Positions 7,918 through 50,567 of a DNA stretch of 64,000 nucleotides are shown one piece after another. The position numbers and the translations under genes are program-made. The notes beneath the pieces are model-generated. The model did no database searches, was not told where the DNA came from, and worked only from the letters and a program-made list of their open reading frames with translations. This DNA comes from an uncultured virus (IMG/VR IMGVR_UViG_3300028048_002585). Lineage: Duplodnaviria; Heunggongvirae; Uroviricota; Caudoviricetes. Where the stretch lies: IMG/VR virus record IMGVR_UViG_3300028048_002585. One strand, 5' to 3'. Numbering within the stretch: position 1 is the stretch's first letter; every line of letters starts with the position of its first letter.

Positions 7918-8874
7918 TCATCTGTCAAATTTTACGTTATCGATTGTTGCAGATCTGTCATCGGTGTTTGATCTTGATAATTCTTTTGCCTGTCTGATAG
8001 CTTCCTTTAGATCGATGAATCTTTTCTTATTATTTTCTAATTCCTGTTTGATCCATTTGTCTGTCCCTATGGAGTCTATTTCATTCAGAAGTTCCGGAGA
8101 AACAAATTGTAATGCGATTTCATTCTGCTGTACAGCTGCAAGAACTACATCTTTATCATTACGGAGCTCTTCCGAGGCATACTTTAGCGGATAGCCACCG
8201 TCATGTACCGCAGCCAGAACTATCTCCTTATCATCTTTGAGTTTATCAGATGCATATTGAAGAGCTGCTCCATTTGCACATACCGCTGTCAAAACTATAT
8301 CCCTGTCGGCCTGAAGCCTTTCAGAAGCAAATTCGAGATTGTAGCCATTGTCCTTTACTGCTTCGAAGACTATTTCTTTATCATCCTGAAGTCTGTCAGA
8401 TGCAAACTGCAATGCTTTGCAATTCTCCGATACTGCGGCATAAACTATATCTCTGTCATTACGCATTTCCTCGGAGGCCCGTTCCAGTACGAGGCCGTTA
8501 CGCTCTATTGCTTCTAATACTACTTCTCTGTCATTTTTCAGTCTGCCTGAAGCGTATTCAAGGAGATACGGTACTTTACGCACCGCTATCAGAACAGCTT
8601 CTTTATTGTTATCAAGTGCAACATTGTCATTATTAAGCCTGTGATCGATAACTCTCAGTAAATTTGGCTTCTGATCTATCGCTGCCAGGAGAATATCGTT
8701 ATCTCTGCGGAGATTATTTGAGACAGGAATATGAAGAACTACGGATCCGTTTGACTGTGCTGCTTCAAGGATGAATTCCTTATCATTCTGTAATTCTTCG
8801 GATACATATTGCAGGTTGGATGCATTTTTTGTCACTGCTTCCAGAGCTTCCTTTCTGTCGGTATATTTTTTCAC
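7918..8874 (-). CDS. DUF4116 helical-repeat protein with shared C-terminal tail motif
   Basis: Tandem ~25 aa repeats ALQYASDxLxDDKEIVLAAV. Confidence 0.88.
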   Translation of the reverse strand: MKKYTDRKEALEAVTKNASNLQYVSEELQNDKEFILEAAQSNGSVVLHIPVSNNLRRDNDILLAAIDQKPNLLRVIDHRLNNDNVALDNNKEAVLIAVRKVPYLLEYASGRLKNDREVVLEAIERNGLVLERASEEMRNDRDIVYAAVSENCKALQFASDRLQDDKEIVFEAVKDNGYNLEFASERLQADRDIVLTAVCANGAALQYASDKLKDDKEIVLAAVHDGGYPLKYASEELRNDKDVVLAAVQQNEIALQFVSPELLNEIDSIGTDKWIKQELENNKKRFIDLKEAIRQAKELSRSNTDDRSATIDNVKFDR

Positions 8875-8926
8875 TGTGATTTCCTCCTTTTTCAGAATGT
8901 TTTTCTGTAAAACATTTACTTATATA

Positions 8927-8996
8927 TATTATGTATAAATACCGACCGGATATAAAAAAAGAGCCGATACAAAATGTACCGACTCGATTTTTTTTA
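8927..8996 (-). promoter_or_regulatory. Terminator plus class A promoter module
   Basis: Minus strand: GAGTCGGTAC-ATTTT-GTATCGGCTC-T7, then TTATACATAATA (8927-8938). Confidence 0.75.
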
Positions 8997-8997
8997 T

Positions 8998-9330
8998 TTA
9001 CTTTTCAATACCGCACTTAGGACATTTCTGTGGGAGCGGTGTTTTGTCTATTGTAAGCTGTAATTTTAATCCACAATTCTTACAATAATAATACTCGAAC
9101 CATCCGTCATGCCAGATATCCCATACAGGTTCTTTCTCAGGGCTTCTCTTTTCATTTTCGTCTGCTTCTCCGATAACGTCTACTTCCCATTTTTTATCGT
9201 TATCATCGTCTGATCTGAAACAATCCACATCCATATTCTCTGCTATTTCGAGGGCTTCTTCCTCATTTTCAGCCTCTACTACAGCATATGAATATACAGT
9301 CGAAATAGCTCTTACCTTATATTTTTTCAT
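8998..9330 (-). CDS. hypothetical protein with C-terminal zinc ribbon
   Basis: VEAENEEEALEIAE phage-type motif; CKNCG...CPKCG. Confidence 0.8.
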   Translation of the reverse strand: MKKYKVRAISTVYSYAVVEAENEEEALEIAENMDVDCFRSDDDNDKKWEVDVIGEADENEKRSPEKEPVWDIWHDGWFEYYYCKNCGLKLQLTIDKTPLPQKCPKCGIEK

Positions 9331-9343
9331 AGTTGTCTCCTTT

Positions 9344-9661
9344 CTAATTCCAGCTGTTTAGTTCTCGCTGAAATGTTTCATTGTAGTAATCCGAATCCTT
9401 ACCATGAGATGTAAGGATATAACCGTCTTGACGCATAGTCTTTCCGGTTTCGATGTCCATGTACTCTTCAGAGACTTCCTGAATAAGCTTATCTCTTAAA
9501 AGATCGTTCAGAGCTGTCTTTACACTCTTTTCATCTTCTTTTGTCTGCCTTACCAACCCGTTCACCGTTGATGAGAACGGAAAATAGCATTCTGTCGGGT
9601 AAGTATTTAGACAGGCTTCCCGATCACAGATGTGACGGAAAATTCTTTCCTTTAGTTTCAT
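9344..9661 (-). CDS. hypothetical protein, possible winged helix
   Basis: Start moved to ATG 9661 after AAGGAGG RBS. Confidence 0.7.
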   Translation of the reverse strand: MKLKERIFRHICDREACLNTYPTECYFPFSSTVNGLVRQTKEDEKSVKTALNDLLRDKLIQEVSEEYMDIETGKTMRQDGYILTSHGKDSDYYNETFQRELNSWN

Positions 9662-9682
9662 ATTGTTATCCTCCTTTCTACG

Positions 9683-9770
9683 TGTCAATAATTTCAAAAA
9701 TATTATGTATAAATTGGAGATCCATAAAAAAAGAACCATCCTTGTATATAAAGGATGGCTCAATTTTTTA
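9683..9770 (-). promoter_or_regulatory. Terminator plus class A promoter module with extended leader
   Basis: Hairpin+T7, TTATACATAATA (9701-9712), TGAAATTATTGACA. Confidence 0.75.
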
Positions 9771-9783
9771 GGTTGAACTTCTA

Positions 9784-9978
9784 TTACTGACCGCTATTCA
9801 TGTGATCGGCCCGATCAGCTGCATAGTGCAGGGAGAATATAGCTCCGATGATCGTATATAGCAGATATATTTCTGCAAATTTTAATTCGCTGCCTATAAA
9901 TGCTGTTATTGACAGCGTTGCCATTATTATAGTGATAATGATACTTACCACAAGGCGTTTTGGGACATTATTTTTCAT
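9784..9978 (-). CDS. small two-TM membrane protein
   Basis: Hydrophobic segments; start moved to 9978. Confidence 0.65.
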   Translation of the reverse strand: MKNNVPKRLVVSIIITIIMATLSITAFIGSELKFAEIYLLYTIIGAIFSLHYAADRADHMNSGQ

Positions 9979-10219
9979 TCTTTTTTCCCTTCTTTCTGTA
10001 GGCCTCTGGAAGAGGCGTCCACGCAATTATCGTTTCTGTTGTAGGATAATTGAGGTCTATCCAATCAGGCTCGTCTGTGCCTCTTCTGAAGCGTCTGTGA
10101 CTCCAATAACGAGTTACATGCATACGTCCCGAATCACTGCATACCAGTACGTATTCACTCGGCTCTACATAAACGTCTTCAGTTATGGGCTCATAAAGAA
10201 GCTTTTCTTCAACCGGGAA
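9968..10219 (-). pseudogene. DUF551-like coding segment in frame behind the TGA of the DUF4314 gene, with no start at its 5' end
   Basis: Open frame FPVEEKLL...YVLVC...IIAWTPLPEAYRK to TAA at 9968. Confidence 0.6.
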
Positions 10220-10423
10220 TCATCTGACTTCAGGAACTATTTCAAATTTATCCTCGTTTTCGATAAGTCCCAGTGTTGAGCCGTTATCCCAGTTCACATG
10301 AATGGTACCTGCATCATCTACGTAATTTACCGTTCCCATCGTACCTCTTGGTGGAGCCTGTATATCATCCATGTATAGCAGGCGTACCCTTGTACCTTTA
10401 GAATATCTCGAAGTGTTTTCCAT
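10220..10423 (-). CDS. DUF4314 family protein
   Basis: GTRVRLLYMDD...PPRGTMGTV..VDDAGTIHVNWDNGSTLGL. Confidence 0.9.
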   Translation of the reverse strand: MENTSRYSKGTRVRLLYMDDIQAPPRGTMGTVNYVDDAGTIHVNWDNGSTLGLIENEDKFEIVPEVR

Positions 10424-10436
10424 AATGATTTCCTCC

Positions 10437-10970: not shown

Positions 10971-10991
10971 GTTTTTTCTCCTTTCGTAAGG

Positions 10992-11080
10992 TGTCAATAA
11001 ATTCATAAATATTATGTATAAATACAAATCAGGCAAAAAAAGAGAACCCGTCCTAAAGGAATAGGTTCTCAAATTTTTTT
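10992..11080 (-). promoter_or_regulatory. Terminator plus class A promoter module with extended leader
   Basis: Hairpin+T-tract, TTATACATAATA (11010-11021), TGAATTTATTGACA. Confidence 0.75.
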
Positions 11081-11087
11081 GATGTGA

Positions 11088-12185: not shown

Positions 12186-12206
12186 ATTTCTTTCTCCTTT
12201 CATAGA

Positions 12207-12295: not shown

Positions 12296-12296
12296 A

Positions 12297-12869: not shown

Positions 12870-12891
12870 AGTTTCTGTTCCTCCTTTTAAT

Positions 12892-17700: not shown

Positions 17701-18924
17701 CTATTTGTCTATATCTTTATTTTCTCTTTTTTCATTTCCTATGTCTATTCCTTCAGATGATTTTTGCATCCTGGCTGCTATTGCAGCTGATTTCGGATCT
17801 ATTCCACCTTCTCTCTCTGAAGCGTACTTTATTATTGATTTGATGGATTCTATTGTTTCTTCATTTATAACGTCGGTTCTGCTTACCAGTTCCTGAAGTG
17901 TCTTTATCGAGTCCGTTACAATATTCATGTTAGGGTCTTTGGATAATCTTTCCAAAATGTGGAGCGGTGCAATCTCATTATTTGCAATGATGTCTTTCAG
18001 ATAACTGTTCTTGCTCTTTGCGATGTTTTCTATATCTATCACTCCCATCGGAAGGTGTCTCAGGTCATCACCTGCCATTCTTACAAGACCTGACTTCGCA
18101 TAATCACATATCAGATTATCAGATAAGCCTGTCGGTTCTTTGTCGTTAAGCATGTTCAGTAGAATGAACGCCGGAGTACCTTCGTTTTTAGCAACTGCCA
18201 TCCTGACTTCGGGACTCTCGTCTTTTGAAAGCATATTGAGAATACTTATACTGCATTTGTTGTCCCTGGCAACAGAAATCCTGTCTTTTTCATTCTTGCT
18301 TGAAGCAGTCTTCTCAAACATATATCCGCGTTCATATTTTTTTATCAGATCAGGAGACATAAATTTTGCTTTATCAAATCCTAAATTTAATACCTGCTCC
18401 TTGGTAAGCTTTAGTCCATCATATATTTTATCGTTCACATCTACCGTAAACGGATCTCTTCGCTCTCCGGGCCAGAATGCAATTACCATAGGTTTTTCAT
18501 CAAACTTTATATATGCCATTCCTACAGCTATGCATGTTTTTTCTTCCGGAGCTTTGGGAATATAAGCCGCTCCGATATCTATTTTCCCTGTGTGTTCTGG
18601 GTCCATAGCATAAAATGTGGTATCGTCCGACATGCTCCTTATATCCAAGACTGTCGTCCTTCCGTATGGAATGTCAGATGTTTCATAAAAAGTGATAGGT
18701 GTGTCATCTTGATTTATCGTTTCTTTTTCTTCCCAGTGTGCTTCAAGTATTGCTCTTTCTATATCCTCAGCTGATAGATCATATGCAGAATTATAATTTA
18801 GCGGTCCGTCTACTCTCTGGTTGATGATTATATCTTTATAATTATCATCCCCAAGATAAAATAACGCAGCGTTTTGAAATGCCTCACTTACTGCCATTGA
18901 TGTTTTATTGTTTTCGTATGCCAT
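17701..18924 (-). CDS. hypothetical protein with LRV/HEAT-like repeats and shared C-terminal tail motif
   Basis: LSKDESPEVRMAVAKNEGTP-type repeats. Confidence 0.8.
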   Translation of the reverse strand: MAYENNKTSMAVSEAFQNAALFYLGDDNYKDIIINQRVDGPLNYNSAYDLSAEDIERAILEAHWEEKETINQDDTPITFYETSDIPYGRTTVLDIRSMSDDTTFYAMDPEHTGKIDIGAAYIPKAPEEKTCIAVGMAYIKFDEKPMVIAFWPGERRDPFTVDVNDKIYDGLKLTKEQVLNLGFDKAKFMSPDLIKKYERGYMFEKTASSKNEKDRISVARDNKCSISILNMLSKDESPEVRMAVAKNEGTPAFILLNMLNDKEPTGLSDNLICDYAKSGLVRMAGDDLRHLPMGVIDIENIAKSKNSYLKDIIANNEIAPLHILERLSKDPNMNIVTDSIKTLQELVSRTDVINEETIESIKSIIKYASEREGGIDPKSAAIAARMQKSSEGIDIGNEKRENKDIDK

Positions 18925-28466: not shown

Positions 28467-28970
28467 TTATTGATTATTGTAAAATCTAAAAACGTCTATT
28501 CCCATGATTACATCATAAAGACCTACTCCCAAAAGATATGGAATAAGGCTGAATGACGGAATTTTTATGAGCTCTGTGAAGATTATGATAAGCGCTATAT
28601 TTGCCATGACTGCATATCTTATCTTTTTACGTCTTGCTGCATAGATAAGGAGAAGTATCGTGAATATCATTATGAACAGAGATTGAATGACACTTTTGCC
28701 GGAAATGATATCTATTATTGCCACAACGGGCCATGAACTGAGCATGAATATAAATGATTTGTTCATCATGTTTGTGTTCTTTTTATCTATTGGACTATCG
28801 CAGTAACGCTTACGTTCTTTATTTCGGGTAAAAGCTTTTTTTATTGTTCCACCGATAGTATACTCTTCATCACTTATGCGAAGTCCTTTACTTCTGTCAT
28901 CTTTCTTTATAATCTGCAGTGCGATTTTTGCGCCTGCTAATATGGTGGCTATCATTATAATCAGGATCAT
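28467..28970 (-). CDS. membrane protein
   Basis: Multiple TM segments; overlaps upstream stop. Confidence 0.75.
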   Translation of the reverse strand: MILIIMIATILAGAKIALQIIKKDDRSKGLRISDEEYTIGGTIKKAFTRNKERKRYCDSPIDKKNTNMMNKSFIFMLSSWPVVAIIDIISGKSVIQSLFIMIFTILLLIYAARRKKIRYAVMANIALIIIFTELIKIPSFSLIPYLLGVGLYDVIMGIDVFRFYNNQ

Positions 28971-29740
28971 CGTTCTTTTTCCTCGTTATATCTCGGGTCT
29001 TTGTCTTTCCATTCTTTGAGGAGTGCAGGATTCATGATCCATACGTCATAGGTTTTCTCGTCCACTACACATACTGCGGACACGTTATTGATGTCCCACT
29101 TCTCTCCTGTGAATATATTGCTGTATAGTGGAGCCTTACCTGTAAGAGTCATATCTTCTATCTCCTGTATCTGGGCTCTCGTGACAAAGACTATCATTTC
29201 ATTTGTTTCTTCGTAGTATTTGGCATTTGGGAAGTACGGATATTTATTTCCATATCTTTCATGTGTCATTTCCGTGAGCTTTGGGTTTTTCTTCCTTACT
29301 GCTTCTGAAAATGCTCTCATATCGAGTTTTTCTGGTCTTATCCCCTCAAGCGTCAGGTCTTTTGAAAAAAGTACAGCTCCCCCGTCGTTCCGTTCTGTGA
29401 CATATCTTCCGCTTTCTGTGTTTATGACAGAAGGTCGTGCAAGCAGTTCGTTCTGCTGATCGCTCAGTATGAAGTCTCTGCCGTATTCTTTCAGTACGAT
29501 CTCGCCGTTTCGCTGCATAAATACGTTTTTCATGACCGGTTCTTTTAGTTCCAGATCTCCGGTGATCTCCTGCATAGTATCGATATCAATTTCCGGAGGG
29601 GAATCAAAATCCGATGTATATACATACGCAAGATAGGATTTTCCCAGATTCTCATCATGCAGAATTACATAGGCTTCGTCATAAGCAGGCGACCCTGACA
29701 TTCCGTATTCTTGGGGATCGTAAATGGTAAATTCTCTCAC
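28967..29740 (-). CDS. hypothetical protein (ends EEKER)
   Basis: GTG start after AAGGA; class A promoter core at 29777-29788. Confidence 0.8.
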   Translation of the reverse strand: MREFTIYDPQEYGMSGSPAYDEAYVILHDENLGKSYLAYVYTSDFDSPPEIDIDTMQEITGDLELKEPVMKNVFMQRNGEIVLKEYGRDFILSDQQNELLARPSVINTESGRYVTERNDGGAVLFSKDLTLEGIRPEKLDMRAFSEAVRKKNPKLTEMTHERYGNKYPYFPNAKYYEETNEMIVFVTRAQIQEIEDMTLTGKAPLYSNIFTGEKWDINNVSAVCVVDEKTYDVWIMNPALLKEWKDKDPRYNEEKER

Positions 29741-29855: not shown

Positions 29856-30314
29856 TTACTTAAATGGAAGATCATTCTCGATGCCCGCAGGAATGTCAAT
29901 GAATCCGCCTTCCGGTGCGCTCTGACCAACAGGTGTATTACCAGCAGGAGCTGTATTCTCTCCACTATTGCCACTTGAAGAGTTCTTGCTTTCCGCGAAT
30001 TCCTGCTCCTCAACAACTACATCAGTGGTATATACCTTCTGACCATCCTTGTTAGTAAATGATCCGGTCTGAATTCGGCCTGTAATGGCAATCTTTGTTC
30101 CCTGCTTCAGGTACTTATCGGCAAATTCACCCTGCTTGCCGAATGCAACACAGCTTATGAAATCGGCTGTCTGCTCGTTTCCATCTTTCTTTGCAAATCG
30201 TCTGTCTACAGCAAGGGTATATCTTGCTATTGCCATCTGCTCACCATTCTGTGACTGGGAATATCTCATTTCTGGATCTCTTGTGAGTCTTCCCATTAAA
30301 ATAACTTTATTCAT
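29856..30314 (-). CDS. ssb: single-stranded DNA-binding protein
   Basis: MNKVILMGRLTRDPE...ADFISCVAFGK...DLPF tail. Confidence 0.97.
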   Translation of the reverse strand: MNKVILMGRLTRDPEMRYSQSQNGEQMAIARYTLAVDRRFAKKDGNEQTADFISCVAFGKQGEFADKYLKQGTKIAITGRIQTGSFTNKDGQKVYTTDVVVEEQEFAESKNSSSGNSGENTAPAGNTPVGQSAPEGGFIDIPAGIENDLPFK

Positions 30315-31031: not shown

Positions 31032-31063
31032 TTTTTTGAGCAATGTCTATTTTATACATAATA
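31032..31063 (+). promoter_or_regulatory. Class A promoter of the relaxase (only plus-strand copy)
   Basis: T6-14 nt-TTATACATAATA, orientation follows the gene. Confidence 0.75.
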
Positions 31064-31082
31064 TATTAAAGAGGTGATTTCA

Positions 31083-32153
31083 TTGAGTGGATACGCAATA
31101 TTCAGAGCAGAAAAAATAACATCATCAAGTGAGATGTCTTCCCGGTACAATCATAATTACCGTGTATTTGACGTTGCCCATGCTGATCTTCTGAAGAAAG
31201 AACAGAATGTGGAACTTATCAATTCAAATGGTAAGACATATCAGGAGCTCTTTGATGATGAAATGTCCCGTCTCAGGATAGCGGGACTTAATTATGGTAC
31301 CCAGCGTAAGAATGCAGTACCGGGCATAGAAATATTTATGGGTTATTCTTATGATGCCGAGGGCGAAATATCTGTCGATGACTGGGCAAAGAAAAGTATG
31401 GAATGGCTGGATAAGACTTTTAATCCCGAGGGTCATACCATACGATTTGTGGACAGATCTGGCATAGAACGATCTCTTGCATCTGATAATATTAAAGCAG
31501 CTGTTCTTCACAGAGATGAATCGGCTGCGCATATACATGCATTTGTTGTTCCTATCGATGATAGGGGTAAACTGTCTGCTAAATTCTATACCCGTGACAG
31601 AAATGCAATGAGCTATCTTCAGTCTGATTATGCAGAGGCAGTTAAGGAATTCGGACTGAAAAGAGGAGTAAAGCACTCTCTCGCTACACACGAAGATATA
31701 ACCAAATACCATTCTTATATCAAGGAAGCAGTTTCATCAGAGCTTCCGTTCCCTGATCAGGGTGAGGATATCATGTCTTATCGTGATCGAGCTAATATAG
31801 AATTTCAGAAGGAAAAGGCGCAGCATAGACAGGACATTGCGGATCTTGAACAGAAGATCATTGAAGCCCGTGCCGAATCACTGGAAGAAATAATGACCAT
31901 GTCTTCGCGTTATGAAAAGTCAGGAAGACAGATGGAAAAAATTGCAAGGGAATTCGGAGTTGATGAGCTTTCAGATGGTGACGTAAGGCAGATAAGAAGG
32001 GTTTATAAGGAGACTGAGTCATTTAAAAAGGCTGTTGAGGATTATCCTGACAGACAGGAGGCAGAACGCGCGATGGCCGCTTTCAGACAGATGGTCGAGT
32101 GGCAACAGGAACGTGACAGACAGTTACAGAAAAAAGACAAAGAAAAAGAATAA
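31083..32153 (+). CDS. MobV/Pre family relaxase
   Basis: SGYAIFRAEK, HNYR, LHRDESAAHIHAFVVP, LQSDY...FGLKRG; TTG start after GAGGTG. Confidence 0.9.
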   Translation: MSGYAIFRAEKITSSSEMSSRYNHNYRVFDVAHADLLKKEQNVELINSNGKTYQELFDDEMSRLRIAGLNYGTQRKNAVPGIEIFMGYSYDAEGEISVDDWAKKSMEWLDKTFNPEGHTIRFVDRSGIERSLASDNIKAAVLHRDESAAHIHAFVVPIDDRGKLSAKFYTRDRNAMSYLQSDYAEAVKEFGLKRGVKHSLATHEDITKYHSYIKEAVSSELPFPDQGEDIMSYRDRANIEFQKEKAQHRQDIADLEQKIIEARAESLEEIMTMSSRYEKSGRQMEKIAREFGVDELSDGDVRQIRRVYKETESFKKAVEDYPDRQEAERAMAAFRQMVEWQQERDRQLQKKDKEKE

Positions 32154-32265: not shown

Positions 32266-33336
32266 TTAATTTGAAATAACAAATATATTTTGTGCTGTTT
32301 CTCTTAGTTTCTGATTCTTTTTAATATCCTCAGTTATTCTGTCCGTGGTTTCTATATCAGATATCCCTGTTACAACCTTATCACAATTTGTATATATCAG
32401 CTCCCAGTCATCTTTATAAAGAGCCTTTAGCTGCTTTATGCTCTGCAGAGTCATTATTACAGAGATATTTCTTCTTTTGATAGTAGAAATACACTGTGAA
32501 AGGTTATAAATTACTCCCTCGTTTGCAATCTCATCTAACATTATATATACAGGGAGCAAATTATTGTTTTTTCTTTTCATCAGGACTCTCAGAATATGGG
32601 AGAAGAAAAATGGTTTGAGTGGAGACAGCACGCCATCATAAGGAGCCGATATTACAAAGAGCGCCGTTTTTTCTTCTGTCAGTCCTTTTATGTTCACTGT
32701 GTCGTTATCTGTCAGTTCCGCTGCTGCTCTAAGGTTGTAAATTTGGAGACGTACTCCTACTGATATAGCGATAGAACGTTTGGTTTTATCTGCACTCAGC
32801 TTGAATGTCTTGTAGCACTTACTGCAAAAGCTGTCGGGGTCTTTTTCTTCTATATCTTCAAGCATTATCTCAAGCGTGGAGATGTTTTGGCCATCAATCG
32901 GGCACATCTCTTGAATAAGAGTGTTCATTGTGGAAAAATTCCTGCTTTCCGGAGTACAGTAATAGTGCAGATAAGCTACGAGCATCATCATAAACAGTTT
33001 TTCTGATCTTTCCCAGAAGGGATCCGCCAGATTCTTATTCTTTTCTGTCGAGTTATATATATCATTAACAAGACTTACTATGTCATTTTCATCCTCTATG
33101 TACTCAAAGGGATTATAATGATCACTCTCCGCCGGTTTTGTAAAATCAATTATTTTAATTTTGTATCCGGCATCCAGAAGCTCTTTCGAAAGATCTGCGT
33201 ATATATCTCCAGTAATATCGTTGATGATATAGCTTCCTTGAAATTTTCTTATCTTGTCCTTCAATAACGAGGTTTTGCCGCTCCCACAGGGGCCTATTAC
33301 AATTGTATTATTGTCTGATATTGAAAACATTTTCAA
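32266..33336 (-). CDS. VirD4/TraG-like coupling ATPase lacking an N-terminal membrane anchor
   Basis: GPCGSGKT, YNPF, DPFWERSE, LDEIAN, LQSIKQLKALY. Confidence 0.85.
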   Translation of the reverse strand: MKMFSISDNNTIVIGPCGSGKTSLLKDKIRKFQGSYIINDITGDIYADLSKELLDAGYKIKIIDFTKPAESDHYNPFEYIEDENDIVSLVNDIYNSTEKNKNLADPFWERSEKLFMMMLVAYLHYYCTPESRNFSTMNTLIQEMCPIDGQNISTLEIMLEDIEEKDPDSFCSKCYKTFKLSADKTKRSIAISVGVRLQIYNLRAAAELTDNDTVNIKGLTEEKTALFVISAPYDGVLSPLKPFFFSHILRVLMKRKNNNLLPVYIMLDEIANEGVIYNLSQCISTIKRRNISVIMTLQSIKQLKALYKDDWELIYTNCDKVVTGISDIETTDRITEDIKKNQKLRETAQNIFVISN

Positions 33337-34738: not shown

Positions 34739-35128
34739 TCAGATCGTATCCTTCGTTTCTACTGACTTTGTCTTTAATTCACTTGCAAGTTTTTCAGCTG
34801 ATTCCTTATTTTTTACTATTAATATTCTGTTATCATAAATGTTAAACAGCTGGGCGCGAGCCAGATTCATATATTTGTCGTGCGGTGCAAAACGATATTC
34901 GTTATTGTCGTCCTTTCTCATAAGATATACATAGTAAGGCAGTATTTCAGCAAGAGGCAGGTCGTGGCTCATAAAATCACCTACTGTCGGCTTATAATAT
35001 GGCAGACGCATTCTGATGTCCATCACCTTTGAGTTTCGGTAATCATGTATTTCATCAGCCTTCTTCTCAAGGATACTCATTTCCTTTTTTGTTAATATGA
35101 CTTTATCCAGTATCTCTATCATAAGCAT
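34739..35128 (-). CDS. hypothetical protein
   Basis: Follows class A core at 35160-35171. Confidence 0.7.
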   Translation of the reverse strand: MLMIEILDKVILTKKEMSILEKKADEIHDYRNSKVMDIRMRLPYYKPTVGDFMSHDLPLAEILPYYVYLMRKDDNNEYRFAPHDKYMNLARAQLFNIYDNRILIVKNKESAEKLASELKTKSVETKDTI

Positions 35129-38304: not shown

Positions 38305-39000
38305 TTAATTGAATGGCAGGTAACGTTCGACGGCTGATCCATCTGTTCCTGTCGCCTGTGTTTGTGTCTGTGTTACTGTCTGTTGTACAGGAGCTTTTAC
38401 TGCCTGCTCTGTTTTAGATGTGTTAGTTGCAGGTGGTGCTACGGGAGCTGCAGGTGCTGATGGGACGGGCTGCTTTACGACTTCTCTTGAAGTTTTCGTA
38501 AATTTCTTTTCAATCTTTGAATCCTTGTTGTATACATTTACGGATTCGATATTCCCGTTTTCGTCGTACTGGATATCCGTTACACGGAATCTGTCAACGC
38601 ACCAGCCATTATCATTAAGGTTTACGAGCTCGCTATTATCAAAATAGATAATAGGTGCCGTGTAAAGCTCTCTGCCTATACCCCAGCAGAATGCTGCTCT
38701 CTTAAACGAGTCGGATACAACTGACTTTGTTCTTTCTCTTGCACCGCCTGTGAAATCGCCTACATCTTCTTTCTCTATCCACTGACCAGATTCTTTGTCA
38801 TAGATAGCAATGTTACAGAATACGTAGTCCCCTTCCACTCTCTGATGTTTCTGCCATCCTGTGTTACCGACTGCTTCATCAAGGATGTTCTGATCCACAC
38901 GGGCATCCTTGTATAGTGCGAGAGCAAATCCACTCTCAAATTTCTGCGAGACTTTAACATCAATCTCATCTTTCTTGATCAAACGAAATTCTATCGACAT
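38305..39000 (-). CDS. Rad52/Sak-like single-strand annealing protein
   Basis: LYKDARVDQNILDE...WIEKEDVG...SDSFKRAAFCWGIGRELY; start moved to 39000. Confidence 0.8.
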   Translation of the reverse strand: MSIEFRLIKKDEIDVKVSQKFESGFALALYKDARVDQNILDEAVGNTGWQKHQRVEGDYVFCNIAIYDKESGQWIEKEDVGDFTGGARERTKSVVSDSFKRAAFCWGIGRELYTAPIIYFDNSELVNLNDNGWCVDRFRVTDIQYDENGNIESVNVYNKDSKIEKKFTKTSREVVKQPVPSAPAAPVAPPATNTSKTEQAVKAPVQQTVTQTQTQATGTDGSAVERYLPFN

Positions 39001-39018
39001 ATGCTTATCCTCCTTTCG

Positions 39019-39136
39019 TGTCAATAATTTCATATATATTATGTATAAATTTATTAACACCGAAAAAATGTGATATAGCCTTGTATTATTGGCTTTTTCT
39101 TATTTTTATTATACGATATATTGACGTATATATCAA
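39019..39136 (-). promoter_or_regulatory. Tandem class B promoter (39108-39136) and class A promoter (core 39037-39048) for the recombination operon
   Basis: TTGATA-TATACGTCAATATATCG-TATAAT; TTATACATAATA. Confidence 0.75.
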
Positions 39137-40337: not shown

Positions 40338-42560
40338 TTATCCCCCCACATGAAATGTTATCTTTGTATTTACGATACCTATCGTCGCTCCATCCTTCAG
40401 TACAAACCGTGCTTTCGGATCAAGCAGTCGCCCGTTAAGGAGCGTTCCATTAGGTGTCTCATTGTCATAAATGGTAAATATGTTAGGCGATTCCTCAGTA
40501 ATGATTGCATGCTCCCTGCTGACATTTATGTCTTTAGAAACCTGAAGATCAGCATAAATGCTTCTTCCTAACACGAACGGGGTATGGGTTATATCAATTC
40601 TTTTTCCGTCAATTAATAGGTATGGTTTCTGAGCCGGTGCTCTGAGAATACCAGTTGCAGGCTCTGATATAGGAGTTCCCGTGACACTGAGTACATTAGT
40701 ATCCGGTTCGCCTGATACATTCTTAAACATATCTGTTGCAGGCTTTGGATTATAGAATACGAATACTTCTTTCGATATCATGATCTCGTCACCATTACAG
40801 AGTATCGTGGGAGTCTGTCTTGGGATTTCTTCGCCGTTGACAAATGTGCCGTTCGTGGAATCTGTATCAGTTAAGTGATAGATTCCGGAGATTTCGAATA
40901 TCCGGCAGTGCTCCTTACTTACAGAATCATCTTCTATCGGATAATCGCATTTCTTCAGACGGCCTATGACAAAATGATTCTTCATAAGATATATCTTTTC
41001 GCCGGTATTCTTGCGAAGGAGGTATGGCATTGTATCTCCTTCCACCACGGGCTGTATGATTCCCATGCTTGATGCATCACTGCTACTTAATATGTTTTCA
41101 CTCCTGTGATAATGCTGTACATTTTGCCTTACAGGGGCAGGTATCATCTGCGGGCCGTTAACTGTCTGAGGATTTTCTGCGTTCTGAACAGGCATTGCAG
41201 GTTCCTGCGACATATTGCTGTTCTGCGGGTAAGGAACATATCCCTGTGACGGAATGTTCTGTGATACCGGAGACTGCTGTTGAGGCTGTATCTGTGGATG
41301 TACAGATGGATGTACGGACTGCTGCAGCTGCTCAGGTGCTTTCGGCTGATATATGGCGGGATTCGCCTCAAATATGCCGTTATCCACTACTTTTACGGAT
41401 GTATCCGGTTTCTTGTTTACCTTTAGAAGTTTATATAAATAATCTTTGTCATAAACCATTTTAATAGCTATTATCGTGACTAATATTACTATTATTGCCG
41501 CACATATGAGTGCTGTTATGAGTTCATATGGAAATTTTTTAGGTTTTACTGTAAGATTGTCCAGAGCATATTCGAGTTCCTGGGTTGCCAGATCTATCTC
41601 GTTCTGGCCTGCTTCTTCATCTGTTAGGACTTTCCTCGCATTTTCATATGCTGTGTCAAATTTTTCCCTGCTGTCTTCCGTATATTCAATATTGGTATCT
41701 ATTTTCTGTGCAGCATCCGTTGCCGAGTGAAGCTTTGTTCGATCTATAGGTATTATCGGATCGCCTTCATTGAAATTGATTCCCATCTCGTCAAATATCA
41801 TCTTGAGTCCTTCAAGACTTATAGCTGTTCCGTTTTCCTTATCGACTATGAATCCGTATATCTCTCCATAATCATTGATAAGGGCAGAGCTTCTCGTTAT
41901 CGATTGGGAATTATCTGAAAATGTAGTGATGGTTCCGTCGCTCAGCGTAACCCTTACAGGTTGTATGAGAATGTCTTTATTTGAGATATATTCGTCTTTT
42001 GACAGTGTTTCGGGTGAATACCCTGTTGTATATATTATCTCATCGTTCAATTCGTTGCCGGGTGACAGTTTGGGAGCGGATTCTGTTATCTCTTCTTCAG
42101 TTCTTGCAAACATCAGATGATAATCATTGATAGTATAAGGTGTTACTTCTGTCGCCTCTATGACATGGTCACGCCCCATGGCAATATAAACAGATGGGGA
42201 TGTGGAGGTTATATCCAGTCCAAGTGCCTCATATCCCGGTGCCCTGTCGGATGCTATTTCACTGTAATCCGTATATGTAATGTCACATGCCAGTACGGTA
42301 TTATTATTGATTATCACGCCTGGGATGCTTCCCCAGATGTCATATGATCCGTCCTCAAGCTTTACCGCATATAGAATCTGCACGCTTCCGCTGAACTGAA
42401 CGTCTGTCTCATCCAGACTGACTTCCTCTACAGCTTCTTCCATTGTTGTTTCTGTATTCCCTACTTCTTCAGATGTGTTTTCCGTATCATCTGCATAGAC
42501 TTTTATCGGAAAAAACATCATCATGATAATAAAGGTTATTATCATCGCTGTTTTTTTCAT
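40338..42560 (-). CDS. Membrane protein: signal peptide, extracellular domain, TM helix, Q/P-rich linker, two cytoplasmic FHA domains
   Basis: FVIGR...SVSKEHC...STNGTFVNG and FVLGR...VSREHA...TPNGTLLNG. Confidence 0.88.
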   Translation of the reverse strand: MKKTAMIITFIIMMMFFPIKVYADDTENTSEEVGNTETTMEEAVEEVSLDETDVQFSGSVQILYAVKLEDGSYDIWGSIPGVIINNNTVLACDITYTDYSEIASDRAPGYEALGLDITSTSPSVYIAMGRDHVIEATEVTPYTINDYHLMFARTEEEITESAPKLSPGNELNDEIIYTTGYSPETLSKDEYISNKDILIQPVRVTLSDGTITTFSDNSQSITRSSALINDYGEIYGFIVDKENGTAISLEGLKMIFDEMGINFNEGDPIIPIDRTKLHSATDAAQKIDTNIEYTEDSREKFDTAYENARKVLTDEEAGQNEIDLATQELEYALDNLTVKPKKFPYELITALICAAIIVILVTIIAIKMVYDKDYLYKLLKVNKKPDTSVKVVDNGIFEANPAIYQPKAPEQLQQSVHPSVHPQIQPQQQSPVSQNIPSQGYVPYPQNSNMSQEPAMPVQNAENPQTVNGPQMIPAPVRQNVQHYHRSENILSSSDASSMGIIQPVVEGDTMPYLLRKNTGEKIYLMKNHFVIGRLKKCDYPIEDDSVSKEHCRIFEISGIYHLTDTDSTNGTFVNGEEIPRQTPTILCNGDEIMISKEVFVFYNPKPATDMFKNVSGEPDTNVLSVTGTPISEPATGILRAPAQKPYLLIDGKRIDITHTPFVLGRSIYADLQVSKDINVSREHAIITEESPNIFTIYDNETPNGTLLNGRLLDPKARFVLKDGATIGIVNTKITFHVGG

Positions 42561-46070: not shown

Positions 46071-47136
46071 AAGCTGTTCCTCCTTTTCTATCGCTTATGT
46101 AGGTGATATAATCTACCACCTTTCTGATATCATCCAGATGCGTTATCATAAACTGTTTTGCATCCGGGCTATCGTGAATAATTTCTGCAAGTTCTTCTCT
46201 TCCCTTCTCTTTTAAGAATTCATCCGGATCCTTGTATGGAGCAGGAAGGATGACTCGGTGTACCTCAAATCCCATATGCTGAAGCATTGGTATGGCTTTT
46301 ATAGAGGCGTTTATACCTGCCTGATCATTGTCCTGCATGATATAAATCTTTGTCTTATTCTTGAGCAGCTGACACTGTTCCGGTGTCAGGGCTGTTCCGA
46401 GAGATGCCACGGCATTGATGAATCCTGCCTGATGCATCTTCAGTACATCCATATAGCCTTCACAGAGTATGTAAGATGTACATTCTGCCGTTTTTGCTAT
46501 ATCGTATCCGAAGAGCAGTTCTCTCTTTCTAAAGATGACCGATTCTGATGAATTAATGTACTTCGGTACATCATCGTTCTTTTCGAGAATCCTTCCACCG
46601 AATGCTACTGTATCTCCGTATGAGTCTTTGATCGGTATCATGAGTCTCTTCCAGAAGACATCTATCGGTTTGTCATCTTTAAGGCGACAGAGCTTTGTTT
46701 CAAAAATATCCTCCTTGTTATGTCCCTGCTTTATCAGGTATTTATACAGTTTGTCACCGTATGAACCTGCATAGCCGAAATCATAATCTTTGAGGCTAAA
46801 CCCTCTGTCTTTAAGATATTGGGCCGCTCTTTTATTCAGGTTATTCTTATAAAATTCTCCTGCGTCGGAAAGAATGGCTTTATATCTCTTCATTTCATCA
46901 GTTTCAGATGGTCTGCCGGGTGATTTTATATCAAGTACCGGAGGCTCTTCCATCTTCAGCTGATGAATAAGATCGTCAATTTTACCACCTCTGCCTTCCC
47001 GGAGGTCGGAATAGGTATTTTTCTCTGTATCGATTATGAGAAGCGGAACTGATGATCTCTGATATGGAAAACGTCCTATAAGGTATTTGCCATGGACCTT
47101 GAATCCGTTTTCCATTAAAAATTTTCTCCAATCCAT
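46045..47136 (-). CDS. dnaG: DnaG-type primase with degenerate zinc-binding domain
   Basis: AFGGR, PKYINS, CEGYMDV, ASLGTA, DNDQAG, KDPDE. Confidence 0.92.
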   Translation of the reverse strand: MDWRKFLMENGFKVHGKYLIGRFPYQRSSVPLLIIDTEKNTYSDLREGRGGKIDDLIHQLKMEEPPVLDIKSPGRPSETDEMKRYKAILSDAGEFYKNNLNKRAAQYLKDRGFSLKDYDFGYAGSYGDKLYKYLIKQGHNKEDIFETKLCRLKDDKPIDVFWKRLMIPIKDSYGDTVAFGGRILEKNDDVPKYINSSESVIFRKRELLFGYDIAKTAECTSYILCEGYMDVLKMHQAGFINAVASLGTALTPEQCQLLKNKTKIYIMQDNDQAGINASIKAIPMLQHMGFEVHRVILPAPYKDPDEFLKEKGREELAEIIHDSPDAKQFMITHLDDIRKVVDYITYISDRKGGTAYEELIQCR

Positions 47137-47161
47137 TTTCTCTTTCTCCTTTCCTAATGAT

Positions 47162-47212
47162 TGTCAATAATTTCATTAATATTATGTATAAATAAATCAG
47201 GTGTTAAAAAAA
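47162..47212 (-). promoter_or_regulatory. Class A promoter with extended leader for dnaG-nrdD
   Basis: T7, core at 47180-47191, TGAAATTATTGACA. Confidence 0.75.
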
Positions 47213-47242
47213 CTGGCATTTTTATGTACTTGTAAGGGTATG

Positions 47243-47296
47243 TGTCTCATATGTCATACATGTCTTATATGTCATATATGTCTCACATATCTCACG
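47243..47296 (+). repeat. Six tandem imperfect 9-bp repeats (TGTCTCATA, TGTCATACA, TGTCTTATA, TGTCATATA, TGTCTCACA, TATCTCACG)
   Basis: Read directly; followed by inverted repeat AAAAACGGAA-ATAAA-TTCCGTTTTT. Confidence 0.85.
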
Positions 47297-47397
47297 TATA
47301 AAAAACGGAAATAAATTCCGTTTTTATAAAATTCAAAAAATCTTACATATTGTTTAGTGTGGAGGTCGCATACATTTATAATCAAAAGGAGATAAAA

Positions 47398-47961
47398 ATG
47401 GTAAAAAAAATTGAATTTTTAAGGATTGTGTATGAAGACATGATAGGATGCGTCAATTATCCTGATCTTGCGCGTTCAATTTATGCGTTGTACACCGGTG
47501 CGAACAAGCAGAAGTTAACTAAGAACGACAAGATGTTTTTGAATGAAGCTATTAAAAACTACATTATGAAGCTGGATGATTGGCCGGTTAACCTAAGGAA
47601 TAACGTGATCATAATTAATGATGATGAGCTAATTGCTCATCTCTCCCAAATGCCTCCCTGTTCTTCAGGCATTGAACTTGCCGATAAATATATTTTTCAT
47701 TTAATTGTCGCGCTTGCTTTCAGAACGAAGATTACACCGGCTATTAAACTTTCTGTTAGGCGTGCGTTAAGTTTGTATAAGGAGTTAGAACTCAACAGCT
47801 CAGCATGTGTTACGGATTTTTTTCCGCATCTAAACGAAAAGACTTATCTTTGCTCAGATATGGTTTATGATGTTTGTAATTTGGCTGTTCTGTTTCACCT
47901 TGGTCGAATTTCTTTGACAAATAAAAAGCATTCCATATCTTATACTGTAGATATCTATTAA
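47398..47961 (+). CDS. hypothetical protein with weak resemblance to the Spo0A C-terminal domain
   Basis: ATG after AAGGAG; IVYED..NYPDLAR and IKLSVRRAL segments. Confidence 0.6.
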   Translation: MVKKIEFLRIVYEDMIGCVNYPDLARSIYALYTGANKQKLTKNDKMFLNEAIKNYIMKLDDWPVNLRNNVIIINDDELIAHLSQMPPCSSGIELADKYIFHLIVALAFRTKITPAIKLSVRRALSLYKELELNSSACVTDFFPHLNEKTYLCSDMVYDVCNLAVLFHLGRISLTNKKHSISYTVDIY

Positions 47962-48043
47962 TTCAAAAGTGCTACCTCCCACGCAATACTCCCCACTCTA
48001 AAAGTGGGGAGTTTCTATTAATATATCAATTTCTTGGCTGACA

Positions 48044-49300
48044 TTATCTGTCTGATTTTTGGCTAAACTCTCTCGACGGACTTTTCTTGGCAGCATCATG
48101 TCTTAAAGCTTCCGTCTTTTCTTTCGCAGCTCTTAACGTAGCGTTTGGATCTATTATTCCTTCTTTTTTGAAGTCGTTCAGATTAAGCTTTTCAGGTGCA
48201 TCATATTTTTCCGCCACTTCAGGGACTGATGACTGTACTTTACTGAGGAATTCGTCCCATTGTCTGTCTGATACGGGCACATTCTCTTCCGGAACTATCT
48301 CGCTGGCAAGGGTTTCTCCTATACCGTATTTAAATGGAGAATCATAGTCCGGCATTTCCCATATCGGTTCATCTATATCTTCATCAACGAGAATCTCTCT
48401 CGGTATTTCTTCGACTGTGGATCTCTGAACACAGCTGTCTGCATATTTTTCCACCTTCATTTCTTCCTGATCAGCTACTTTCATATATTGCTCGGCTGTT
48501 TTCATATAATTTTCTTCAGTCGATTGCAACATCGGAGAGTATTGTATGTCTTTATCTCTGCCAAGACTCCTGTCAATATCATTCTGCAATTGTTCAAGAC
48601 GGGCAATGCGTCTGTCGGATCTTTCTATAAGTCTCTGGTCAATTCCGTCACGCAGGGACGTAAGTACCTTATGATTGAAGTTTTCCAGTCTGAGATGTGA
48701 ATCTGTTATGCATTTCTCTGTATTAAGATATGCTTGGGATATCATATCCTTTGTACTCAATATAAATTGGCTTCCTGCTTTTGCGAAATATTTTGTGATG
48801 TCAGATATTTTCTCTGCAGACTTAGCAATGCATTTCTGTCCTATAGCTATGGCATTTTCCTTTGCATGTATAAATGCGAGCCTCAACTGGTTTCCTAGAG
48901 ACGGATCCTCTCTTCTTATATCTGATTTCAGTTCATTTATCTCATTTCTAATCTCCGCTATGTCTTCTCGTGTACGCTGCAACTCATTCACGAGCCCCTC
49001 GGTAGACTGGGTCAATTCCTGTCTGGCAACCTTGTTTTCGAGATATGTTTGGGCTTTCATGAGTGCTGAATATTTGTTTTCAGCCAAAGCGAGCGAGAGT
49101 TTCATATAATTGATGTTAATCTTCTTTTCGGTCTTCTGAAACTCGTCCTGCGTGTAAAATCCATGGCTGGCCATCCAATTAAATCTGTTAAGGATATTAT
49201 ATGCTTTCTTCTGATATGAATCGGTTATCTGATCATCTTTTATAATCTGTGCTCTTTTGATAGTATCCATTACCTGCTGGGTGTAAAAAATATCATTCAC
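48044..49300 (-). CDS. coiled-coil protein with shared C-terminal tail motif
   Basis: Heptad-rich sequence; overlaps upstream gene. Confidence 0.8.
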   Translation of the reverse strand: MNDIFYTQQVMDTIKRAQIIKDDQITDSYQKKAYNILNRFNWMASHGFYTQDEFQKTEKKININYMKLSLALAENKYSALMKAQTYLENKVARQELTQSTEGLVNELQRTREDIAEIRNEINELKSDIRREDPSLGNQLRLAFIHAKENAIAIGQKCIAKSAEKISDITKYFAKAGSQFILSTKDMISQAYLNTEKCITDSHLRLENFNHKVLTSLRDGIDQRLIERSDRRIARLEQLQNDIDRSLGRDKDIQYSPMLQSTEENYMKTAEQYMKVADQEEMKVEKYADSCVQRSTVEEIPREILVDEDIDEPIWEMPDYDSPFKYGIGETLASEIVPEENVPVSDRQWDEFLSKVQSSVPEVAEKYDAPEKLNLNDFKKEGIIDPNATLRAAKEKTEALRHDAAKKSPSREFSQKSDR

Positions 49301-50567
49301 GGCTGTTATCCTCCCTGTCTTCCTTAATATGATTTTCCTGTGATCTGTTTGCCTGGCTTTTTTCTTTTGCCTCTTTTAATGCCTGTTTCGGGTCTATCAG
49401 TTTGTCTTTATCTGATTCTTTCTTTGAAGGAATGCTGTGATCGGCATACTGTCTCTCTTCAATGACCGAACTCAGCTCGGCTCTGTATTCTTTTTCGTAT
49501 AATGTGCCACTGTAAATACGTTGTTCTAGTTTCATCAGGTTTTCGACCATCTGGTCCGATACCTTTGGGTTCTTTACCATTGCCACGATATCCTCATATG
49601 ACGGATATTTGTCTATATATCTGTATATGGTATTGATTGTTTTTGCATAGATATTCGGATGAGAGGATGTTTCTCTCAAGATATTGAATGCGATTTTTTT
49701 AGGGCCTTCATATCTTTCTACGGTATCGATGACTTTTGTTGCATTATCAACGAGTCTATCCAGTCTTTTTCCCGATGTCCGGGGATCCTGTGCTTCTTTC
49801 AGATATAGCATCAACTGTGCTTCCTGAGATATTGTGTGACTTTTATCTTTAAGAAGTGACTCAAGTATTTCATTTGAAATATTCGGGTTTAAAAGAACTG
49901 CCTCTCTTACAGATTTACTGCTGTCTTTCGACAGTCTTTTTAAATCGTCTTCTGGACATCTCTCATTTTTTGCCACAAATCTTCTGACATCCGAACTTTT
50001 GTTCTGTGATGCCTTTCTGAACATTTCTGTATTTGAGATTGGATTGGTCAAGACACGCCTGATCAGTTCATCCTTTCTAGCGCTGTTATATTCACTGAGA
50101 TGTTCCCATTGCTCATTATTAAGGCATCTTTCAAATATTGCTTCGAGTATTGCCGGATTTTCTGTCGTTTCAGACAGATTCATTAATTTTTCCGGCAGCA
50201 TGCGTTCGGTTTTTATTATCTCCAACAGAACATCTTTCGGTGTATTCTTATTTCTTATAAGTCCTTCTATAACATCTGTATATGCATTATGAGTGTATTC
50301 GGGGTCCTCATATATTTTTTCCAGTACCTCCGAAGGAGTATAAGGACTGTTAAGGATATGCTTTGCGTAATTCCCGAATTCGTCCTGCCTGAGATACTCT
50401 TCATACAGTTTGCTCGGTGTTTCAAGGCAGCTTAAAAAAGCTTTCTGTAGATCATATTTTCCAAATTTTGTATCTTTTTCAATTGATTTTAAGATGCTTC
50501 TCAATTCTTCTTCTGAAAGAACGTCGAAAACACTGCGAACTGAACCTTTTTCCATATTTGAACACAT
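49293..50567 (-). CDS. LRV/HEAT-like repeat protein with shared C-terminal tail motif
   Basis: Repeats NxxTPxEVLxxI and DVRRFVAKNERCPEDDLKRLSKD. Confidence 0.8.
   Translation of the reverse strand: MCSNMEKGSVRSVFDVLSEEELRSILKSIEKDTKFGKYDLQKAFLSCLETPSKLYEEYLRQDEFGNYAKHILNSPYTPSEVLEKIYEDPEYTHNAYTDVIEGLIRNKNTPKDVLLEIIKTERMLPEKLMNLSETTENPAILEAIFERCLNNEQWEHLSEYNSARKDELIRRVLTNPISNTEMFRKASQNKSSDVRRFVAKNERCPEDDLKRLSKDSSKSVREAVLLNPNISNEILESLLKDKSHTISQEAQLMLYLKEAQDPRTSGKRLDRLVDNATKVIDTVERYEGPKKIAFNILRETSSHPNIYAKTINTIYRYIDKYPSYEDIVAMVKNPKVSDQMVENLMKLEQRIYSGTLYEKEYRAELSSVIEERQYADHSIPSKKESDKDKLIDPKQALKEAKEKSQANRSQENHIKEDREDNSRE

Follow-up and report, generated by a model that had tools for sequence, protein, structure and literature searches.

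The DNA examined here is a stretch of 64,000 nucleotides (IMG/VR record IMGVR_UViG_3300028048_002585; hereafter the window, meaning the whole of this stretch), and it is part of a large conjugative element of bacteria that live in the ruminant gut. The window is gene-dense and, from about 6.1 kb onwards, is coded almost wholly on the minus strand. An earlier note on this DNA described four proteins with a common C-terminal tail, and all four tails are present in the translations as written. We refer to these proteins as P1 to P4 and to the shared tail as the tag. The four carriers are as follows.

7918..8874, minus strand: P1, 318 amino acids (aa), acidic, with DUF4116 repeats; motif IDLKEAIRQAK at 7984-8016, tail running to the stop at 7918
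17701..18924, minus strand: P2, 407 aa, N-terminal half without assignment, HEAT/armadillo-like repeats; motif IDPKSAAIAAR at 17770-17802
48044..49300, minus strand: P3, 418 aa, helical, without a Pfam family; motif IDPNATLRAAK at 48122-48154
49293..50567, minus strand: P4, 424 aa (the database record starts at the second ATG and has 420 aa), LRV/HEAT solenoid; motif IDPKQALKEAK at 49365-49397

A C-terminal tag on four proteins

The regular expression ID[PL]..[AT]...A[KR] matched four times in all six frames of the window, always on the minus strand, and placed the motif 32 (P1), 33 (P2), 36 (P3) and 34 (P4) residues from the C-terminus, exactly the distances given in the earlier note. In 300 residue shuffles of the 1085 six-frame open reading frames (ORFs) of at least 30 aa, the mean number of matches was 0.007 and the maximum was 1. 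The earlier note had proposed scanning the replicon with a hidden Markov model (HMM) of the tail; a model of the 21-residue core scored the four tails at 31.4-35.5 bits and the next best of the 1085 ORFs at 3.6 bits. Because of this gap, the window holds exactly four copies of the tag and no weaker ones; a second tail family is also absent. When the last 50 residues of the 76 window proteins were compared all against all by BLASTP, only the pairs P1-P4 (2e-6), P3-P4 (7e-5) and P2-P4 (0.049) stood out. The products of 28967-29740 and 34739-35128 and the relaxase have polar ends, but the core HMM gives no support for a fifth tag in any of them. These ends are charged and lack the helix motif (...NEEKER for 28967-29740, ...KKDKEKE for the relaxase at 31074-32153, and ...VETKDTI for 34739-35128).

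The core of the tag reads phi-I-D-[PL]-x-x-[AT]-phi-x-x-A-[KR] (phi, hydrophobic) and is usually followed by E-K. A polar linker lies upstream, and 15-22 polar residues of mixed charge, few of them hydrophobic, lie downstream. The charged tail of the earlier note is therefore present, but its charge is mixed: the net charge after the helix is 0 in P1, -2 in P2, +2 in P3 and -2 in P4, and -1 in each of the orthologues P0008 and P0009 introduced below. The carriers as a whole are acidic (net -8 to -20). In a ranking of the 76 proteins by hydrophobicity of the last 20 residues, least hydrophobic first, they take places 1, 2, 3 and a tie at about 8. The extreme C-termini vary, being FDR, IDK, SDR and SRE in P1 to P4, INR and DER in the orthologues, and VEL in one variant. 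Reading the N-termini by eye, without a signal-peptide predictor, revealed no signal peptides in the carriers, and Pfam has no family over the shared tail of 29-36 residues.

The bodies in front of the tag had been described as DUF4116 repeats, LRV/HEAT-like repeats or coiled coil. The repeat assignments hold: P1 matches DUF4116 (PF13475) in five stretches (275.2 bits against a gathering score of 24.9, E 9.7e-84), P4 matches LRV (PF01816; 35.6 bits against 21.6, E 9.3e-9), and P2 matches HEAT (PF02985; 25.7 bits against 23.5). The coiled coil is reduced to a single stretch of P3, about residues 94-141, which a crude heptad count picked out as coiled-coil-like. P2 and P4 have repeats in common (3e-7), and the best local alignments of P1 with P4 and of P3 with P4 are the tails themselves. 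Apart from the repeats common to P2 and P4, the carrier bodies are, by these comparisons, unrelated.

Single-sequence AlphaFold2 models were built for two carriers. In the model of P4 (mean predicted local distance difference test (pLDDT) score 59), a coil of about 22 residues (371-391, pLDDT below 50) precedes a helix at 393-416, which begins at P393 directly after D392 and is followed by coil to the end. The model of P1 (mean pLDDT 69), in which position 3 of the motif is L and not P, has a helix at 273-305 running through the motif, and residues 306-318 fall below pLDDT 50. D-P is a classic pair for the N-cap and N1 positions of a helix, and [AT]xxxA forms a small-xxx-small face. Of 10 proteins in the ESM Atlas that resemble P4 in structure, 8 have alignments that do not extend past residue 378; these look-alikes are LRV/HEAT clusters, often viral. 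A profile search of the PDB with the tag gave chance-level matches only (a designed helical protein and the RAD23B UBL), all of them helix starts. As modelled, the tag looks like a short linear motif beyond the folded body and not like a domain. It is a portable N-capped helix followed by about 20 disordered residues that are close to neutral in net charge. A membrane-targeting helix was also considered and rejected, as large hydrophobic residues are scarce in the helix and 20 polar residues come after it.

Conservation and distribution of the tag

Two carriers have orthologues outside their own clusters, and both orthologues bear the tag. A phmmer search with P3 over 1.84 billion representatives returned two proteins, its own cluster and P0009, a P3 orthologue of 437 aa (42-46% identity) that ends in ...MIDPKEAIRKAKEK plus 17 residues, with the motif 31 residues from the C-terminus. 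A word-based search with P2 (3763 candidates) returned its own cluster and P0008, a P2 orthologue of 411 aa (49% identity) that ends in ...IIDPNAAISAAK plus 18 residues, with the motif 29 residues from the C-terminus. The distal 15-22 residues diverge in P0008 and P0009, being of other sequence and similar character. Because the motif is kept at 42-49% body identity while the distal tail diverges, the tag is a selected, portable peptide under purifying selection.

The variants gathered in 90% clusters (12 of the 13 P3 members, a 136-aa fragment being left out, 13 of P4 and 13 of P2) differ within the motif only by exchange of P and L at position 3, by exchange of A and T at position 6, and at the free positions; I1, D2, A10 and K/R11 are invariant. 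One P3 variant has a different distal end with MIDPNAALKAAKE kept, and one P4 record has an unrelated end, probably through a frameshift. A sheep-gut contig from run X10 carries 37 differences in 2801 bases. Its P3 codons 370-385 have nine base changes, six silent and three conservative (K378R, I382M and P385L), and its P4 has a single silent change in the tail and 8 replacement and 2 silent changes in the body. These counts are small numbers and fit a constrained tag on a fast-evolving binder. As a separate matter, the predominance of replacement changes in the P4 solenoid body of this one natural variant hints at diversifying selection on the binder surface. The tail DNA of the four genes differs at synonymous sites, so the tag is not a recent DNA copy. 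An RNA or DNA element at this position was likewise rejected, since the tail DNA is not conserved.

Searches beyond the element lineage did not find the tag. Profiles of four and of six tails run against 5.8 billion proteins recovered only the five known clusters (3 among 2247 scored candidates with the first profile, 5 among 8000 with the second); the four-tail profile scores held-out orthologous tails at only 16-21 bits, so that distant tags are invisible at this scale. Back-translated IDP-[K/N]-x-A-x3-AKEK matched three times in 185,579 species genomes (596 Gb), and none of the matches is such a tail: the first is in a frame of only 62 codons that has a hydrophobic end, 26 residues before its stop, and in the remaining two the distance to the end is 93 and 130 residues. 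The pattern IDP-x2-A-x3-AKEK gave three matches in IMG/VR, all internal. We also assembled comparison loci of 351,553 bases around nine of the closest CD1115-type coupling proteins (34-37% identity) together with locus L002 of pAPRE01. These loci gave no strict match; the four loose ones fell 126-488 residues short of a C-terminus, and the HMM scored nothing above 4.6 bits. By these sequence searches, the tag is specific to this element lineage; host proteins do not commonly have it, and elements with a type IV secretion system (T4SS) do not generally carry it. The concern raised in the earlier note, that the motif might be equally common in host proteins or in elements lacking a T4SS, is not borne out, given that the strict motif is near-absent from the 185,579 genomes and from IMG/VR.

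The element and its promoters

Genes and other features of the window include the following.

62538..63998, minus strand: VirB4-like ATPase, CD1110 family (conju_CD1110, 501 bits against a cut-off of 325); its 5' part lies beyond the window
60106..62514, minus strand: T4SS cell-wall hydrolase, lysozyme-like domain and M23 peptidase
58147-59256, minus strand: HipA_C-like kinase, adjoining the T4SS hydrolase
52062-52906, minus strand: group II intron without an ORF splitting the Pol III alpha (dnaE-like) gene, between 50668-52053 and 52982-55615
40338-42560, minus strand: two-FHA protein, 740 aa, two FHA domains and a FIVAR domain
38305-39060, minus strand: Erf-like annealing protein, ending ...RYLPFN (phrog_14970 match, 7.6e-56)
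32266..33336, minus strand: VirD4-like coupling ATPase, CD1115 family, 356 aa (conju_CD1115, 253.9 bits against a cut-off of 250)
31074..32153, plus strand: MobV relaxase (104.9 bits against a cut-off of 100), without the tag; probable start at the in-frame TTG at 31083
29856-30314, minus strand: SSB, ending ...DLPFK

Further genes of the window encode a tyrosine recombinase, a DUF1810 protein, an LPD28 protein, a DUF4314 protein, a C5 methylase, PhoH-PIN, RecD2, an exonuclease, NrdD and DnaG, in addition to Pol III alpha.

With these scores above the family cut-offs, the window is predicted to encode a T4SS of the Firmicutes CD1110/CD1115 type with its relaxase and hydrolase. The VirD4-like ATPase gene is convergent with the MobV relaxase gene. 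Its product amounts to the nucleotide-binding core, with an intact Walker A (GPCGSGKT) and Walker B, no N-terminal membrane anchor and a short C-terminus; it has 356 aa against 520-730 aa in 24 of 26 relatives from a sample of 301 genomes. In pAPRE01, the matching core occupies roughly residues 153-495 of a protein of about 598 aa. This ATPase is a candidate reader of the tag. Homologues of VirB6, PrgI and PcfB were not seen in the window, and the usual virD4-virB6-prgI block would sit upstream of VirB4, beyond it.

VirB4, VirD4 and Pol III alpha have their nearest relatives, at 34-40% identity, in Clostridia and other Bacillota plasmids, and contigs with these proteins reach 153,658 and 153,455 bp. 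The stretch encoding P3 and P4 was found in bovine and sheep gut metagenomes; among the runs listed, 17 of 24 contain at least half of its sampled words, the holders span 12 studies, and three runs are possible sources of the DNA. Five short contigs at least 99% identical to P3/P4, from three metatranscriptome runs, give a weak hint of transcription. A metagenome search yielded a single 5-kb copy of the same element. Relatives of positions 47000-52000 were not found by megablast against plasmids and phages, nor relatives of P3 and P4 by tblastn against plasmids; searches for related loci with P4 and P0009 gave no relatives of the element, and the promoter pattern described below had no match in genome or viral contigs.

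Several neighbouring features deserve mention in their own right. The intron in the Pol III alpha gene matches Rfam RF02004 (127.8 bits, 52671-52906) and RF00029 (60.8 bits, 52062-52146) and has no internal ORF longer than 64 aa. The end of the Erf-like protein is possibly an SSB-tail-like LPF end on a recombinase. The FHA protein and the HipA_C-like kinase could form a phospho-signalling pair on the element. The idea that the tails serve as phosphopeptide ligands of this FHA protein together with the HipA-like kinase was dropped, as the tails of P4 and P2 contain no Thr.

About 20 genes of the window are preceded by a transcription unit made up of a GC-rich terminator hairpin, a T-run and a box, without a conserved -35 element. 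The box, ATTTATACATAATATAT (also written TTTATACATAATATAT), has 22 matches at no more than 3 mismatches against 1.1 expected; 20 copies were aligned, and two plus-strand matches with 3 mismatches (17305 and 30978) were left out. Downstream of the box, 12 of the 20 copies have a conserved ATGAAATTATTGACA together with a ribosome-binding site, an arrangement not seen in the other 8. These box-only copies include those of P1, P2, P4-P3, the relaxase, 28967-29740, 34739-35128 and the FHA gene. The copies placed here are listed below.

8924-8940, minus strand: box-only promoter-like box upstream of P1
19053-19069, minus strand: box-only promoter-like box upstream of P2
50599-50615, minus strand: box-only promoter-like box upstream of P4-P3
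9698-9714, 39034-39050 and 55645-55661, minus strand, and 31050-31066, plus strand: other box copies

The earlier note placed all four carriers and the relaxase behind a single leaderless promoter subtype. This is so for the relaxase and for P1, P2 and P4. There is no separate box for P3, whose GTG start and the stop of P4 overlap by 8 nt, so that P3 is carried on the transcript of P4. The word leaderless does not fit, as the genes have Shine-Dalgarno leaders and lack only the conserved leader box. Tag genes lie behind 3 of the 8 box-only promoters and 0 of the 12 promoters with box and leader (Fisher about 0.05), a weak association of tag and promoter subtype. The repeated box itself suggests an element-specific transcription factor, sigma factor or polymerase, with a shared 5' leader.

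Possible readers of the tag and comparison with known systems

Other CD1115-type elements carry C-terminal tails of comparable layout. In the comparison loci, the pattern [KRELQ]PS[IVLM]...[LIVM] matched 30 times, 11 of these at 24-42 residues from the C-terminus; six of the 11 are real proteins, and five short odd frames were set aside by eye. A narrower pattern, KPSL.E.L, had no match in these loci. The six proteins have a (K)KPS[IV]xxxL..K tail 31-34 residues from the end and comprise three DUF3801/PcfB proteins (one abutting virD4), one DUF6674 protein and two polyvalent proteins (1022 and 1115 aa) that both contain ArdC-N, M78, YodL and LPD domains and, in one case, also ArdA. KPS tails occur in loci L035, L043, L044, L045, L046, L055, L056 and L061 of other Bacillota genomes. 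Run over 301 Bacillota genomes, a profile of the six tails had hits in 5, and two of these are its own sources. It added three carriers, all with the match C-terminal (two DUF3801-like proteins and one frame of at least 547 aa), and one spurious hit; one new carrier lies about 1 kb from a coupling-protein fragment. A passage of PMC12084326 equates PcfB with DUF3801 and positions it before virD4, without a defined function. Polyvalent proteins are proposed, in PMC5512222, to travel with the DNA, with ArdC and TraC1 transferred.

The KPS tails resemble the tag in having a capped helix (with Ser in place of Asp) at 31-34 residues (29-36 in the tag) before a polar, charged and disordered end, and in both cases the carriers are soluble proteins, unrelated to one another, on elements that share a coupling-protein family. 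Unlike the tag, KPS tails have more basic distal parts and sit on anti-restriction and PcfB proteins, whereas the tag is found solely on solenoid and helical proteins of no known function. The KPS motif is absent from the translated tails of P1 to P4. Aligned with hhalign, the two kinds of tail share the register hydrophobic-x-x-hydrophobic-K-E (E 0.057, probability 0.95%). We take the KPS tails as an analogy of geometry, not as homologues, that makes a reader within the transfer machine more likely a priori.

The tagged proteins are probably recognised by a single common partner, for which the machinery of DNA transfer is the likeliest candidate. In the reading that we favour, at a probability of roughly 0.4, the tag would be a T4SS address label, its reader a VirD4-type receptor, and the four proteins binders sent to recipients. 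The helix would dock on one common reader and the floppy free C-terminus would be presented to it, an arrangement of docking and terminal presentation that would suit a hexameric motor starting at a terminus. The reader would be the VirD4-like coupling ATPase, the substrate receptor of the CD1110/CD1115-type T4SS. During mating the acidic solenoid and coiled-coil proteins would enter the recipient, where they may act on host proteins in establishment or anti-defence. The presence of VirB4, the hydrolase, the VirD4-like ATPase and MobV on the same element as the tag speaks for this scheme, in which the carriers could form the effector set delivered to recipients that the earlier note envisaged. 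In an extended form of the scheme, which we regard as unlikely, Gram-positive CD1115-type systems would generally use a two-part address, a capped helix placed about 30 residues ahead of a floppy free end, whose helix diversifies with the coupling protein. This element would have put its own version on acidic solenoid binders for injection into recipients, and the membrane-less VirD4 paralogue next to the MobV relaxase would be a soluble receptor for protein cargo alone.

Several observations weigh against an address label. The relaxase, SSB, primase, C5 methylase and LPD28 protein have no tag. The sole coupling-type ATPase of the window is the one without a membrane anchor and shorter than 24 of 26 relatives; a coupling protein proper to the T4SS, should one exist, lies beyond the window. 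The distal tails, at net -2 to +2, are not basic, and P3 and P4 are encoded between the primase and Pol III genes, outside what is presumed to be the leading region. The tag does not occur in the 351 kb that surround the nearest relatives of the coupling protein, its resemblance to the KPS tails falls short of significance at the hhalign values given above, and its occurrence in two lineages only is too few for co-variation with a reader. About 90 kb of the element lies beyond the 64-kb window (contigs of about 153 kb), so the element could also be a phage-plasmid.

The main rival, which we rate as somewhat less probable than the address label, is that the tag is read by another intracellular partner, either a hexameric AAA+ unfoldase or protease, for which the helix would be a tether and the floppy end an initiation site, or a replication or partition hub. 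With a protease as reader, the four proteins would be short-lived, or would be adaptors taking bound host proteins to degradation. The facts that mark the tag as a selected docking peptide apply equally here, and a fixed distance of 29-36 residues to a free disordered end suits any terminus-engaging motor; a body, a flexible linker and a short tethering peptide make up the layout of an SspB-type adaptor. The position of P3 and P4 in a replication module and the missing tag on proteins usually transferred agree with such a partner as well. However, no candidate reader of this kind was present among the window proteins scanned, known degrons lie at the very end, where the sequences vary here, and the KPS tails on PcfB beside virD4 and on anti-restriction polyvalent proteins point towards transfer. 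Rather improbable is a structural or self-association helix, a shuffled module acting as a cap or through an [AT]xxxA oligomerisation face with no external reader. The sharing could partly be common descent in P2 and P4, whose repeats are common; the P1 model has one long helix through the motif; and phi-D-P/L-x-x-[AT]-phi-x-x-[AL]-K-E-K is a common helix start, as the chance-level matches of the PDB profile search illustrate. Such a helix is difficult to reconcile with the unrelated bodies of P1 and P3 and with the low-confidence coil of about 22 residues that parts helix from solenoid in P4, and it leaves unexplained the conserved length of the disordered end (29-36 residues in 6 of 6 proteins).

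The element would be a phage-plasmid, and the tag a signal for packaging into or ejection from a particle, in a further explanation that we consider very unlikely. A phage-like set of replication and recombination proteins (Pol III alpha, DnaG, NrdD, RecD2 and the Erf-like protein), a single promoter box repeated about 20 times with a terminator per gene, LRV/HEAT look-alike clusters that are often viral, and two assemblies ending at 153,658 and 153,455 bp are in keeping with it. Yet 46 proteins compared with PHROGs included no capsid, portal, terminase or tail family, the 'tail' and 'head' rows being solely M23 and lysozyme matches of the T4SS hydrolase; neither the promoter pattern nor protein queries located the element in IMG/VR; and T4SS and relaxase genes are present. 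Chance or compositional likeness of low-complexity ends can be set aside almost completely. K, E, A, S and D abound in the tails, and motifs of this sort at the start of a helix are widespread, but four copies at a fixed position stand against 0.007 expected from the shuffles, and the motif is kept in two orthologues with variation confined to degenerate positions; the regular-expression, HMM, variant and shuffle results refute this explanation for practical purposes.

For the protein cargo of conjugation machines, the signals described in PMC11288057 and PMC8406263 are Gram-negative only and mostly classes of charge or hydrophobicity, and passages of a T4SS review of 2025 (PMC12857230) name no signals for Gram-positives. 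A non-exhaustive literature search, made without supplements, did not find a sequence-defined C-terminal tag on proteins of Gram-positive conjugative elements. If the address-label reading is true, the tag would mark solenoid proteins as injected establishment or anti-defence factors and could serve both to trace cargo on other elements and as a portable tag for delivery. Should a protease or another hub prove to be the reader, the tag still groups four proteins of no known function on a widespread ruminant gut element.

Among known C-terminal signals, XVIPCD of Xanthomonas and BID of Bartonella are common modules that bring varied effectors to VirD4, and they are folded domains of about 120-140 residues; the tag differs in having 29-36 residues and one short helix. 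The E-block of Legionella Dot/Icm substrates is a Glu-rich block about 10-17 residues from the end, followed by small, polar and hydrophobic residues. P4 ends in KEDREDNSRE and P0008 in EDKGEEKENINR, while P1 and P3 have no acidic block and the system of the element is not type IVB. The SSB tail, of the D-D-D-I-P-F type with an acidic run and an [IL]-P-F end, is likewise distinct from tails ending in FDR, IDK, SDR and SRE. The ClpX-binding tail of SspB and the ssrA tag are peptides at the extreme end, often hydrophobic, that are read by a hexameric ATPase. The carriers share with SspB the layout of folded binder, flexible linker and short C-terminal peptide; unlike AAA+ degrons, the tag is a conserved helix followed by about 20 variable polar residues.

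Substrates of the Agrobacterium VirB/VirD4 system (VirF, VirE2, VirE3, VirD2 and RSF1010 MobA) carry an uncleaved, unstructured C-terminal signal of tens of residues. Like the tag as we read it, this signal occurs on otherwise unrelated proteins and is read by a VirD4-type coupling protein. It is defined by net positive charge and Arg spacing, whereas the tag is defined by an N-capped helix about 30 residues from the end, and the last 15-22 residues of the tag, at net -2 to +2, are not the net positive, Arg-rich stretch seen in Agrobacterium. A role of positive charge in the Agrobacterium signal is given in a title cited in PMC8406263. The host system of the tag also differs, being a Gram-positive T4SS of the CD1110/CD1115 type.

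Gram-negative conjugative T4SSs are described, in passages of PMC8406263 and PMC11288057, as translocating many proteins, encoded by plasmid and host alike, whose signals are C-terminal or internal and have no consensus. For the pED208 F plasmid, pKM101 and RP4, passages of the same two sources report proteins co-transferred with DNA, and C-terminal pieces of 50 residues that can hold the signal. Substrate signals there are grouped, in the passages concerned, by charge and hydrophobicity, whereas the tag is defined by sequence; the substrates named include ParA/B, SSB and PsiB, and the SSB counterpart on this element lacks the tag. The earlier interpretation stands in that the tag is real, portable and selected and lies on a T4SS element, and it is weakened by the untagged state of the classic transferred proteins and by a distal tail that is not positive. 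C-terminal address tags of the T4SS type are already known, and the tag of this element would be a new form of them, a plausible and partly supported interpretation.

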